In this document: piece by piece, positions 28,279 through 49,100 of the stretch | How positions within the stretch are numbered: the first letter of the stretch is position 1 | Layout of the letters: each line of letters opens with the position of its first letter | From: Pocillopora damicornis | Taxonomy: Eukaryota | Direction: 5' to 3' | NCBI RefSeq assembly: GCF_003704095.1 | Contig: NW_020844271.1 | Coordinates: forward strand, 1 to 64,000 | Length of the DNA: 64,000 nucleotides | Notes under the pieces: model-generated | Told to the model about the DNA's origin: nothing | Seen by the model: only the letters and a program-made list of their open reading frames with translations | Databases searched by the model: none | Position numbers and translations under genes: made by a program

Positions 28279-31200
28279 CTAATCTGGTAAATCATATCGA
28301 AGTTTTTTCATTACTTCAGAGCAAATTTCCTCAATTCTCACGATGTTTTCAGCACTCAGTTCTTGTTCCCAGGCCGTGACCATTCTGGAGCTGATCAATT
28401 CCCTCGAGGAACCCAAACCAAATTGCTCAGTCCGAACGACTGTAAGTAGACGATGTTCAGTAGCTGGCGAAAGCGGCACACCTACAAAGCGAGAAAGTTC
28501 CTCTGCGGTTTTGCGAGGTTTTAGGACCAAATCCTCTAATTGAACAAAGCGTATGCCTCCCATTTGAAAGTGCGCGTTGGCACGCAGAATCGCTTGCGTC
28601 TGCGCGGCCCAGAGATGGGCAAGAAATTGCACGAGGGTGTTTTTGTCGTTTTTATCGCTATGATCCTTGAGTGCTTGCTGCATTTCAAAGAATTCAGGGG
28701 AAAAATTTGACATACTCCTCTCTGAGCACTTGAGATTCTTAACTGTATCAAAGGCGGCGTGGACAGCAGCGCGAAGTTCAGTATCCACGCGAATTTCTCG
28801 AAGCCACGCGTTCACCCACCCTCTCGGATCCCTAACCACGACTATGGCACGCATTCTCTCCTCCACGATCTTTGATAACCACGAAAACTTCAAACCCCAC
28901 GCGGGATCCGACAGTCGGACAACTGGAAGAGCCTTGTGAAGTTTATGGGGTAATTTTGGTAAAACTCGTTTCGGGTCTTTAGCAAGACCACGAAACCATT
29001 TTCGATCCCGAAGCGTTTCAGACGAATGGTGAAAACGATGAAAAGTAGAACACGGATCCAAAAACTTTGCACCTCTCCCAACCTCTACATTGAAGAAATT
29101 CGAAGAGTTTTTAAACATGTGTGTTAGTATTTCCGCGCCTGCTAGAGGTAGAGATGTGAATAACACAAACGGTGGAACCTCTTGTACTTCGGAGAGAACA
29201 CGAATTTCGCGGGAACTTTCAGTCACTTTGGGTTTTTTTAAGTCACATCCTTCACCAACACAAAAACTGATGTGAACAGCCATTATTGTTATTAACCATG
29301 ACATCCCAAGACAAATCACGAACATATCACAGAGAGTTTGTCGAAACATCTTTTTTCGAAGCTGTAAATAGAGATATAGCAACACAATAGAAACAATGAA
29401 TGGCAGAAACAAGGAGGATAAAATATTCCAAGTTGTATGCGAGTTAGTCTCACTTAGGGTTAATATTAAAACTTCCTCCTCTGCAGATGACATGACATCC
29501 AAACCGAAACGCACAGTCCTGGATCTCTTCTCGCTAATTTCAACCTTGCAATATCCTCCAAATTCCAAGAACTCATATCTAGAGTAAGGTTGATTATGCT
29601 TTGTTGCTATGGAAACATGGTAACGAACTCCATTCACCATCACTGAGATCTTCACTCCGTGTTCATGCCCAGTTACTACTCGTGGAAGTTGGTCTACTCT
29701 ATGTCCAGGACCGAGAAATAAGTACGCAGTCCGTGTATATCGCACGTTCAAGGGCGTTGTTATATTAAGATAATGTGTTCGAAAGGAATGGAAACTTGAC
29801 GAGTAATTTGTCGAATTGGCATAACTCTTCTGGTCGGTCCCTAAGTTTGACCAGTAAACTCTGTGCAAAAGTCCCTCTATGGAAATGGTAGCATGGGGTG
29901 TTTTGGACATGCTCTCATTGAGTATGAAGGGATGATCAACGTTATGAAAGAAGGCGCTCATAACAGATGCTTGACTTCCTATTTTGCGTTCGATATGATC
30001 GACCACGAGGAGCACGCTTGGATTCAACATAATCAAGGAACGATATACACTAAGAAGGCCCAGTTCTTGTCGATACCACCCACTCATCTCTCCGCTTATA
30101 AAAACCATATCATCTTCGCTTGACGCAGATATAATATCTCCTTGGGCCCTCCAGGCTGCCATTGTTTGAAAATTAATCCACTTACTGCATTCTCCTATCT
30201 GCCCCTCAAAGGGTTTGTAGCAAGATGACTGTTGAGAGGGACCGAATACTAGAGCATTATTAAGGAAAGTGTACTTGTAGGCGTAATAGGTCTCTGTAAT
30301 GAAAGGTACACCATTTGGGGCAAACACAAATGATCCTTGGTCCGGCTGTTCATGGCCAGGGTTAAAACTTCTCCGTCCTTGTAGCCATGATCGAACGCGT
30401 TTTCCTCTGGCAAGAGAATTTATCGCTCGTCCGTGGAGCACCCCACATTTCAAGGAAAGAAATGTTCTTTTCTTACCCCAGTGACCGCCTAAATTATTAC
30501 CGGGAGATAGGTCCAATCCACCCCCGTAAGTTACCACTCCCCAATCACTGAACACGTGGAGTCGAGGCATACTTGGGTTGGGTAGTGCTCTCTCTTGAAT
30601 ATCAGGATTATAGAATAAGAACTCTGTGTGGAGCATGCTTTTTTGGTGTGACGCCGATTGACTATAGACTTTCACTCCTGCTATTTGAACCTTGTGCTCT
30701 CTTATCTGTCTGGCCAGCCAATTCCCTAAGCCACTTCTCAAAACATGGTTGTCTAGGAAAACTAGCTGGCTTTCTGGACCGTAAAACCAGTTCCGATTGG
30801 AATCGCCATAGCCAACGGTTTCTCTGAACCCTGGGAGCACCATATGGTAAAGAAACGCCGCGTGCTCTTTAAGCCAAGGGGAATGCGTGAAGTCTACACG
30901 TAAGTGGCGTAACGCAAGGAACACATACTGCGTTAGTGAACGTGTAGTGTAAGTGCCGTAGGCGACTCCTTCGTTAATGGAGCCGTCCACTACGAAGTTA
31001 AACAGCTCTAAGTTTCTACTTAACATTAAGTGAGCTCGTGACAACCATTTCTCCCCCTCGAACATCTTGTGTCGGGCGACAATCAAGGCGCCATTTAATA
31101 TCGCCATATAGTTTGTGGCTACGTGATTTTGAAGATAAGAAGACCCCCACCAAAGCTTGAAAGATCTTTCGTATAATTCCTTTGTCACTGCCGTTATATT

Positions 31201-46128: not shown

Positions 46129-49100
46129 ATGGCGATCAAGAATAGGCCCTCAATACAATTTCGGAGAATATTCTCTCTTACTTTCCTAGCGCTAGGTATA
46201 TACTATTTCTAACTACATGTGAATGGAATTCATGCACAATTTTGCGAGCGTGATCTTAATTTTTTCTTTCTTTCAGTCGTTTTGTTCTGTAGGTGCAATG
46301 CGTTCGTCAAAGAGCTTGACGACAGGTTAGGAGAAGATTCAATTTGTGGTTTATTTTCTTGTTCTTATTTTAAACGTTATGGTACTTTTATTGTTTTTAA
46401 CATTCTTGTGTACTTACCATGGGGTGCGGGATACAGAAAATGAAAGAAAAGAGGAAAATTAACAAAAGGACGACCTCGAACGACGGGAAACGGACAATTG
46501 ATTGGAGACGTCACTTCTTGGAAATCATATTGCTCCCTATTCTCTTTGTCATATGAATTAATGGGTTTTGACTTTGCGTTGTAAATGCAGTAACACTCGA
46601 AAAAGGGGAAAGGGGAAACCTTTCTAATGAATCTTGTGATCAACAAATCAAGCCCGGCCAATAATTTTCAATTGCTTAAGAGTTAACAAGAGGAGTAAAA
46701 TTGTAAGGCAACGTGAATCAGTTTAGGTGGCTAGTTAGAAAGCCCATACTGCTAGAGTTTAACCCATTTTCAGTAGCTTGGAATAACTGTGTATTTTTTC
46801 ATCCCATTGGATGGGACAACAGTGAATATTTGGGTTAGCCCCAGGGTTTTGTCATTTTTATAACCAGGTAATTTAGTATTCATTTATCAACTGAGTTGAT
46901 AATACAAAATTACTCTCCCACTGATGCAGTACTGCAGTTTCTTTAGAAAATTATCTCCTTTATTCTTTTGGCTTGTTTCCTTGGCTGTTTGCTATTACCC
47001 ACGTATACTCTTGGGCCGAGAGCTAGAGAGGTTTGGTGCAAGCAAAGTTTCTTGCTAAAGAACACAACTAAGGACTTGCACTGGAGGTTTTAATTAGAAT
47101 TGTGGGCTACTGACCACCATTCTACTAAACCGCCAGTTCTTCCAAATGAAGGTGTATTACCATCCTTTTAGTCTGAATTAAAAGTAATCTGTGATATTCT
47201 TTCCCTCTCACAGTTTTTCATCTCTGATGAATGAGGGTAGCTGGTTAGTTGAGGTATGGTCTCAATTCTTTTTTTTTAACCCTTTAACTCCCAAGATCTC
47301 ATCAGTAATTCTCCTTACTGTCTGCTATACAATTCTTCTAATGTTACTTTTGATAATTTGCTGTTGGATCAACTAATAATCCCCTAATTGATACTTCTGT
47401 CAGTTCTCGTCACTTGTCTTCTTGATTTTGTATTGATATTGTAAGGACTAAGACACTCGTGGGAGTTTCAGGGTTAATGAATTTGTTATCCACATGTCAA
47501 GGACAACAAAGGAGGCAATTTTTCTACATGTCTTCCCTCGTATACCGGTAATATGGCCACAAACTTCCTGGTTAAATCATGACCACTTTTGTCCAATACC
47601 TTAGTTATAGGCCTCTTCCAGTGTCTTGTTATCAGCAAAGTGGACCAAAAAATGCAGTACCTCAGTCTTTCCATTAATGCTTCATGTCTGTTAAGCTTTT
47701 GGAAATGTCTTTTAGTTCTATGCCCCATGGTGTGGTTACTGCAAGAAACTAGAGCCAATATGGGCTGAAGTAGGGAAAACTCTTTATGGATCACCTATTA
47801 GAGTTGGAAAATTAGATGCAACTAGATACTCAGGTAAAGATATTTGCAATGAAAACTTTCTTTTATTGCCATGGCTCTTTAAGGGTTAAATGTAGTTGTG
47901 CCTTTTTATGATTCCACTCATTCATTAGAAGGGGCAATTACTAAAAGGAAAACAAAATCTTTGGGTGTTGGGGTTAAGTCTGGCCTCTGCATTCACTCAG
48001 TTTTTTTTTTAAATTTGATTTGTACAATTAATTATTTTCAAATACTTGGTTATATTATCGTGTGATAAGAATAGATTAGAGTAGATAGCTTGATGTTCTT
48101 TACAATTTCTCATTCGGATTTCACTATTTAAGAAATTATCTCTATTCTGATTTTGTTTATTAGCATTAGCAAAACACTTTGGTATCAGAGGATTTCCTTC
48201 AATTAAATTGTAAGTAGCATCAGCAAACTATTAATAACACTAACTCAAAAACTACATTTTACATGCTACATGGAAATAAATTCAGGACAAAATTTTTTGT
48301 TTTAAACTTCAATCATGAACAAGATGTTTTAGATAATTACACAAATTGAAATTTGAATTTGCTTTATATAAATAAGTAAATTTATATATATATATATATA
48401 TATGTATATGTATATTTAAAAAAACCAAGAGAGACTCATTAGGCATGACCTTCAGCGATGAACCCTTTCTCTTCTACACTTCTTAAAATATCAAAGGACT
48501 TCTGTTCTTGGAAAAATAAAAAAAGTCTGAAAATTATAATCCCTTTATTTAACCCTTACTCCTTTGGATGGGATTTTTGAAGCTGATTTGTAGATTATGG
48601 TCATACCTTGCTAGATTGTACAGCTGTCTTATTTCTAAGGAACACTCCTAAGTATTTTCAATTTATCAATAGGTTACTAACTTGTTGTTCTACAATTTTT
48701 TGCTTGTGGTATAACAGTATTAAAGGAAAGAGAGTTTTAACATTTGAAGGTGAACGCACAGTCCAGGATTTTGTCCAATTTGCAGAGAAGGCAAACAGGT
48801 GAGATATGTTTGCTTCCCTGTCCTTGTGCTTCTAATTCTTTTACTCTCAGAAGTGATCAACATGAAGTTTCTCCTTGTAATATCCTTATATTATCCAGCA
48901 AACAGGTAATGAGAATACGCAGACTTATCAGGTGCAAGTTGCTATCTTGATCCAATACCAAATTCTCATAACTAATTTAAAAGAGAATGGGTAGCAGCTA
49001 GAAGGGAGAATTAAAATCAGATCTTGTGAGTTACAGGACTAATGCAAAATGTTTGACTGTGTGTTAGTCTGTCCAGTGACCCACTCAAAGTTGATATAAA

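Follow-up and report, generated by a model that had tools for sequence, protein, structure and literature searches.

This work concerns the first 64,000 nucleotides of contig NW_020844271.1 from the coral Pocillopora damicornis (assembly GCF_003704095.1), hereafter the window, in which two DSEL genes, DSEL-A and DSEL-B, lie on either side of a dead copy of the TMX3 5' end, and the intact TMX3 gene lies beyond DSEL-B. We consider it probable that a head-to-head DSEL-TMX3 unit underwent a single tandem duplication and that interlocus gene conversion and spacer turnover followed. The ends of this ancestral unit would have lain 10-37 bp past the DSEL stop codon and in TMX3 intron 2. DSEL-A would have kept the ancestral 3' end and a downstream neighbour that we take to be a ZNRF-type RING gene; DSEL-B would have kept the real TMX3 neighbour and lost its 3' untranslated region (UTR), and its transcript now likely continues for some 400 nt through intron-2 sequence in antisense, up to a candidate ATTAAA signal. 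Conversion would keep the coding interior of the two genes alike, the ends beside unrelated flanks would diverge, and the spacers would have turned over through repeat insertion and deletion.

Self-comparison of the window, which the earlier note on this DNA (made from the letters alone) had proposed for 27-48 kb, returns one long repeat, 28269-31727 against 36349-39809 with 93.3% identity. The long repeat holds the two DSEL genes:

28279..31692, minus strand: DSEL-A coding region, a single exon of 1137 aa with the Stylophora-type C-terminus retained.
36359..39775, minus strand: DSEL-B coding region, a single exon of 1138 aa with Tyr at position 244 (39044-39046).

The name DSEL given in the earlier note holds, because the Pfam domains DUF4962 and Sulfotransfer_1 are found in both copies and DSEL-A matches human dermatan sulfate epimerase (PDB 6HZN, E 2e-168). 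The layout described for DS-epi2/DSEL, an epimerase domain followed by a C-terminal PF00685 domain, occurs in Cnidaria according to the part of PMC8006597 consulted, and both copies have it, with the epimerase N-terminal. These two are the only DSEL matches in the species' own genome (2 matches from 8 scored candidates). Longer B-type proteins of 1184-1185 aa apparently stem from an upstream GTG start call and were not taken as a real extension.

The TMX3 side of the duplication comprises the intact gene, the region that served as template, and the two parts of the stub with the repeat that separates them:

46129..56680, plus strand: intact TMX3 gene, with exon 3 at 47214-47253, exon 4 at 47716-47833 and the last coding exon running to ~56680.
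46010..47064, plus strand: stub template, i.e. the TMX3 upstream region, exon 1 (46129-46195), exon 2 (46277-46325) and most of intron 2.
34107..34505, plus strand: stub part 1, with the TMX3 upstream region, exon 1, intron 1, exon 2 (34372-34427) and the start of intron 2.
35849..36321, plus strand: stub part 2, a copy of TMX3 intron 2.
34506..35843, no strand assigned: repeat insertion in the stub, high-copy, 1.34 kb, bounded by TTAA on either side and with another repeat nested in it.

Exon 4 matches proteins named TMX3-like in several corals, with Pocillopora nearest, and a full-length relative maps exon by exon onto the window gene, so this name stands as well. The claim that the segments at 34.1-34.5 and 35.9-36.3 kb are decayed copies of the TMX3 5' end was borne out: 34107-34497 aligns with 46010-46389 at a score of 240.5 (shuffle maximum 57), and 35849-36321 aligns with 46411-47064 at 308 (shuffle maximum 47.5; 100 shuffles in each case). 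Neither piece behaves as a high-copy repeat, since own-genome searches, in which very common words were skipped, matched each of them only to itself and to TMX3. The pieces are consecutive in TMX3 coordinates (46398 to 46411), and the stub is one continuous TMX3 copy, later split by the TTAA-flanked repeat; loose contig ends in the sequencing runs described below fall at 34506 and 35843, the edges of the insertion. The start codon is lost, exon 2 carries a 7-nt insertion and a GT-to-GC donor change, and exon 3 is missing. With sequence of introns 1 and 2 kept, the frame destroyed and the gene incomplete, the stub fits a partial unprocessed pseudogene of TMX3, and its copied sequence ends in intron 2, because exon 3 of the intact gene lies at 47214-47253. 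At least six further copies of the short TTAA-ended element that interrupts the stub occur in the window (47273-47477, 48838-49045, 50912-51131, 51313-51536, 53294-53503 and 63864-64000), five of them within TMX3 introns.

The two homologies meet just downstream of DSEL-B:

36322..36348, no strand assigned: duplication junction interval, where TMX3 intron 2 is joined to the DSEL 3' end.

Firm TMX3 homology stops at 36321, 37 bp short of the DSEL-B stop, and DSEL A/B homology starts at 36349, which places the junction 10-37 bp past that stop. The earlier note had the TMX3 homology ending about 20 bp before the stop; an end near the stop is correct but the distance is not, as the final stretch toward ~15 bp from the stop aligns only weakly with TMX3 (26.5, below the shuffle maximum of 31). 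Its statement that A/B similarity ends at the stop codon is also roughly right, the similarity running 10 bp further (7/10 alike) and, at the other end, ~35 bp ahead of the ATG. An end at the stop is no breakpoint marker alone, because conversion and selection would likewise confine similarity to the coding region; it is the TMX3 homology that places the junction. In keeping with the note, the A and B 3' flanks are unrelated (alignment score 25.5 against a shuffle mean of 27.7). Block order and orientation agree, DSEL-A followed by the stub mirroring DSEL-B followed by TMX3. Together with the outgroups considered below, these homology blocks, their order and their orientation support the proposal that the duplicated unit ran from the DSEL stop into TMX3 intron 2.

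The junction is also present in other sequencing data. The stretch of the window between 21232 and 41855 is free of N, and contigs bridge the junction ungapped in all 4 sequencing runs examined (4 studies, 2 organism labels; from 22 runs listed). These runs count as RNA by guess only (18/22 guessed RNA, 0/22 recorded as RNA), and their contigs show no splice joint and give no strand or transcript end. Because DSEL-B served to find the runs, A and B were not ranked by depth. Five of 30 bins were without contig cover (26534-27050, 27568-28084, 30670-31186 in 3 of 4 runs, 32221-32737 and 32738-33254). A splice donor directly after the stop codon, suggested by TAG followed by GT in both copies, was ruled out, since contigs cross both stops ungapped.

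A DSEL-B transcript reading more than 37 nt past the stop would enter TMX3 intron 2 sequence in antisense. Scanning for AATAAA and ATTAAA gave one candidate signal for each gene:

35958..35963, minus strand: candidate polyadenylation signal ATTAAA, 395 nt after the DSEL-B stop.
28139..28144, minus strand: candidate polyadenylation signal AATAAA, 135 nt after the DSEL-A stop.

The ATTAAA is the first such hexamer downstream of the DSEL-B stop, and it is absent from the aligned place in TMX3 intron 2. Judging from this geometry and from the candidate signal, the DSEL-B 3'UTR is likely antisense TMX3 intron 2 sequence, as the earlier note proposed. Contigs end at 35950, 35983, 35996 and 36079 for DSEL-B and at 28125-28197 for DSEL-A, close to both candidate signals. 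These ends look transcript-like; they were not counted as evidence, because no DNA run stood alongside and contigs show no ends.

The outgroups bear on the ancestral order. DSEL and TMX3 have consecutive accessions in Stylophora (PFX32259.1/PFX32258.1), Acropora millepora (XP_029184355/XP_029184356) and A. muricata (XP_067054512/XP_067054513); these are three of the six named corals having both accessions listed, and each shows one DSEL numbered next to TMX3. In A. digitifera, A. palmata and Montipora the two genes are on scaffolds of the same length, with accessions that are not consecutive, and the Oculina locus tags G012087 (DSEL) and G012090 (TMX3) are 3 apart. No TMX3 match was found in the 3 kb upstream at L001, one of three further loci (L001-L003). 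Oculina patagonica has three DSELs (P0005, P0013, P0141) on the scaffold holding TMX3. In a protein tree built by a quick method, the Oculina DSELs cluster with each other, one further protein lying beside them, and are separate from the pocilloporid pair; this grouping points to an expansion of its own at that locus in Oculina.

As to which copy is ancestral at its 3' end, DSEL-A likely holds the ancestral end and the ZNRF-type neighbour, and DSEL-B the junction, because the Stylophora DSEL ends in the same five residues as DSEL-A and because L003, a coral DSEL at 65% identity, has the same ZNRF-type gene 2.8 kb downstream (2.4 kb for DSEL-A). In its final 56 residues, A resembles Stylophora (85.7%) more than it does B (69.6%). 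The quick-method tree groups A and B against Stylophora with a support of 96 (SH-aLRT, the Shimodaira-Hasegawa-like approximate likelihood ratio test); conversion undermines dating by such a tree, the age of the duplication relative to the Stylophora split included.

The stub and the DSEL pair differ strongly in divergence. Between the stub and TMX3, 224 of 817 aligned sites differ (27.4%; 23.4% without CpG context; 22-25% with laxer gaps). Between A and B, 80 of 795 synonymous and 33 of 459 fourfold sites differ (7-10%). This is a roughly fourfold gap (Fisher p 2e-19, and p 4e-14 after removing CpG-context sites), whose reading as a difference in age assumes that the stub and the DSELs date from one event. 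The synonymous A/B differences are clustered (p 0.0006, 5000 permutations): in 150-bp bins divergence varies between 0 and 21%. The two extremities of the coding region reach 21% and 17%, and two peaks inside it stand at 15% and 17%.

The protein comparison covers 16 Pocillopora-cluster proteins, the window's two and 14 near-full-length database proteins (14 of 233 cluster members, one 191-aa fragment being excluded), and classing them by the last five residues gives 7 A-ended and 9 B-ended proteins, the window's two included. Block mosaics of A and B states occur in 13 of the 14 database proteins (p at most 0.002), and 84 variants within residues 11-998 are common to A-ended and B-ended copies (all 16 proteins, unphased assemblies). 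Over residues 26-1000, proteins of one class are on average 5.2% apart and proteins of different classes 6.4%, where 11 Pocillopora TMX3 proteins average 1.6%; the corresponding class values for the last 137 residues are 1.1% and 18.4%. The two ends of the database copies are of the same class in 12 of 13 cases (p 0.005). Because silent divergence is low compared with the stub and patchy, and because mosaics and shared variants occur, it is likely that gene conversion has moved tracts between these intronless coding regions of 3.4 kb since the duplication. Four of six coding differences listed from the sequencing runs (40 of 292 rows shown) equal the base of the paralog; they were left unused, as they could equally be private changes in the window's copy.

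Several observations weigh against a single duplication followed by conversion, and the foremost lies in the spacers upstream of the two genes:

31728..34106, no strand assigned: spacer A, with repeats at ~32314-32528, 33012-33152 and 33376-34091.
39810..46009, no strand assigned: spacer B, with repeats from ~40466 onwards.

Homology along the whole unit, spacer included, is expected of a tandem segmental duplication, and the spacers should align because a single duplication must have copied them, at the divergence level of the stub. No alignment between them was found, non-repeat parts included (best score 35 against shuffles of 26-34; proximal parts 37.5 against a maximum of 48), and the unique parts beside the two start codons share only ~35 bp. 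This mismatch is the main evidence against a single event: the 5' region was replaced in at least one copy, or there were two events. Such a two-event history, in which a TMX3 5' fragment was inserted behind a single DSEL and a DSEL coding copy was then placed on its other side, would account for the unaligned spacers, for similarity that barely exceeds the coding region and for DSELs that look younger than the stub. It is nevertheless unlikely, as it must happen to rebuild the order and orientation of its template; moreover, 17-21% of sites differ at the ends of the two coding regions, a level that fits an old pair and not a young one, and DSEL-A, supposedly the new copy, carries the Stylophora-type end and the ancestral ZNRF neighbour. 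Within spacer B, several internal direct repeats (92-95%) lie beside N stretches at 41545-45682, which may be imperfectly assembled.

The remaining points concern the conversion and the outgroups. The stub clock may run fast, TMX3 intron 2 being CpG-depleted (observed/expected 0.52; the intron-2 part of the stub is intermediate at 0.64). The mosaic database proteins could be assembler chimeras. The 24 fixed A/B differences all lie in residues 1031-1137 among the 16 proteins, a C-terminal placement that is partly circular, as the class label itself uses the last five residues; leaving out one hybrid with an A start and a B end adds 10 more fixed differences, in the first 23 residues. P0122 has an A-type start and a B-type end, as expected if unequal crossing over had produced a third, hybrid copy, or if the assembly were chimeric there. 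In the outgroups, consecutive accessions suggest one DSEL beside TMX3 but do not prove adjacency, and L001-L003 have diverged too far to be aligned beyond the genes. When their flanks were set against both copies, 1 of 12 comparisons beat the shuffles, and it was rejected as an AT-rich low-complexity match.

A single duplication without conversion would require constraint on silent sites, rapid decay of the stub and of a methylated intron, and mosaics that are chimeras of the assembly; it could draw on the CpG depletion of intron 2, on the origin of the mosaics in database assemblies and on the description of gene conversion as very rare in corals (in the part of PMC10236652 consulted). We hold it slightly less likely still than the two-event history. 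The roughly fourfold gap survives removal of CpG-context sites, silent divergence is patchy, and chimeras formed at random would not leave the two ends in agreement in 12 of 13 copies; nor could assembler chimeras account for the low average A/B distance. Finally, although divergent haplotypes in some marine animals can reach a difference of ~7%, a range that includes the difference between the two copies, it is very improbable that two haplotypes were assembled in tandem or that the stub is ordinary repeats, given the N-free sequence and the junction in 4/4 other runs, a stub that is 27% diverged with its own insertion and whose pieces match only TMX3, and end types that both recur (7 A and 9 B among 16 proteins).

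One duplication with later conversion remains our preferred explanation. Equivalents of His205, Tyr261, Tyr473, His450, Glu470 and Asn481 are present in both copies. The catalytic triad His205/Tyr261/Tyr473 (DS-epi1 numbering) corresponds to H190, Y245 and Y470 in 16/16 Pocillopora-cluster and 28/28 other coral proteins. The manganese ligand set of DS-epi1 (His452/Glu470/Asn481) is incomplete: Glu and Asn are kept and His452 is replaced by Gln, the comparison being to DS-epi1. Because every one of the 16 Pocillopora-cluster proteins and 8 of 28 other corals have this Gln, the change predates the duplication. Position 244, beside the catalytic Tyr, is Ala in 28/28 other corals and in 6HZN, and Tyr in 9 of the 16 Pocillopora-cluster proteins, in both classes; in the window, Ala244Tyr is a three-base change. 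Tyr304His likewise affects a residue that is invariant in 28/28 other corals and is found in A-ended and B-ended copies.

Among the variable columns of the cluster, 8 of 149 fall on near-invariant positions, position 244 being one of the eight, when 379 of 1123 columns are near-invariant in other corals (p 1e-18). By this measure, purifying selection continues. With Stylophora as the reference, B carries 63 derived differences and A 32 (p 0.002); for the final 62 residues alone the counts are 12 and 2. Change in B may be quicker close to its new 3' end, but conversion blurs the count. A further, tentative idea, which we think doubtful, is that the two loci act as a conversion-shuffled pool of enzyme variants in which Ala244Tyr-type variants would be under balancing selection, the ends and 3'UTRs being locus-specific and the interior common. 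If this were true, the structure of chondroitin/dermatan sulfate would show heritable variation among colonies, much as receptors are diversified by immune-gene clusters.

Other genes are recognizable around the duplicated unit. Downstream of DSEL-A lies:

25000..25852, minus strand: 5' part of the presumed ZNRF-type RING gene (72% DNA match to L003:6452-7527), the downstream neighbour of DSEL-A at 2.4 kb.

The CpG observed/expected ratio is 0.92-0.97 in the DSELs, which are undepleted, and mostly 0-0.4 in the ZNRF-type and TMX3 gene bodies (17500-24000 and 46500-54000). A single-exon G-protein-coupled receptor of the rhodopsin family is at 8588-9520 (minus strand). Exons at 14546-15840 (plus strand) resemble what we take to be an F5/8 type C domain, and an exon at ~63626-63772 (plus strand) presumably belongs to a RAB5IF-like gene. 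Within spacer B, an open reading frame at 41796-42386, presumably recombinase-like, gave no Pfam match, and another at 43685-44467, which we assume to be reverse-transcriptase-like, gave only a weak ALKBH8_N match in Pfam.

The locus is of value as a test case: the TMX3 stub gives an age for the event that does not depend on the two DSELs, and by this stub clock the silent-site distance underestimates the age of the pair about fourfold. It also gives near-identical coding regions with unrelated 3'UTRs and promoters, and carries a common variant beside the catalytic residue of a glycan-editing enzyme. Literature searches (DSEL/TMX3, epimerase with coral or Nematostella, cnidarian synteny) found no report of this locus, and those combining DSEL with TMX3 or with cnidarian synteny found no paper on the pairing; among the DSEL/TMX3 papers listed, none was evolutionary to judge by title or opening of the abstract. 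The word "epimerase" is absent from the main text of PMC10236652, and its supplements may list this pair. In human, DSEL and TMX3 are consecutive protein-coding genes on 18q22.1, ~1.16 Mb apart (PMC2868029, from the part consulted), and they may be an old conserved gene pair.

To conclude, the processes are known and the instance is new: a partial tandem duplication, a likely replacement of a 3'UTR and likely interlocus conversion. Tandem duplicates make up about a third of coral genes, and conversion among them was called very rare, judging from divergent introns (PMC10236652, in part). The duplication is thus ordinary for corals, and the conversion would be a counterexample to "very rare": unlike those duplicates, an intronless pair shows conversion-like homogenization relative to a co-duplicated neutral stub. 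If other intronless coral tandem pairs act alike, dating based on synonymous divergence (Ks) and the claim of very rare conversion need a caveat. As in tandem duplications of Drosophila yakuba that cut genes and take up non-coding sequence (PMC5460883, in the portion available), a breakpoint within a gene unit gives a new flank and leaves a partial copy of the neighbour; in contrast to them, the whole coding region is kept here and only the 3'UTR would be replaced by antisense intron, as read from DNA alone. Variants shared across paralogous loci and tract-like mosaics resemble interlocus conversion in segmental duplications (PMC4467073, PMC3790853, both in part), whereas our evidence is at the protein level and comes from unphased assemblies. 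Lastly, the genes resemble human DS-epi2 (DSEL) and DS-epi1 (6HZN; PMC8006597, in the part cited above) in the epimerase plus PF00685 layout and in the catalytic residues, their activity being predicted, and they differ from DS-epi1 in the His452-to-Gln change (16/16 Pocillopora-cluster proteins) and in the replacement of the Ala beside the catalytic Tyr by Tyr in 9/16.

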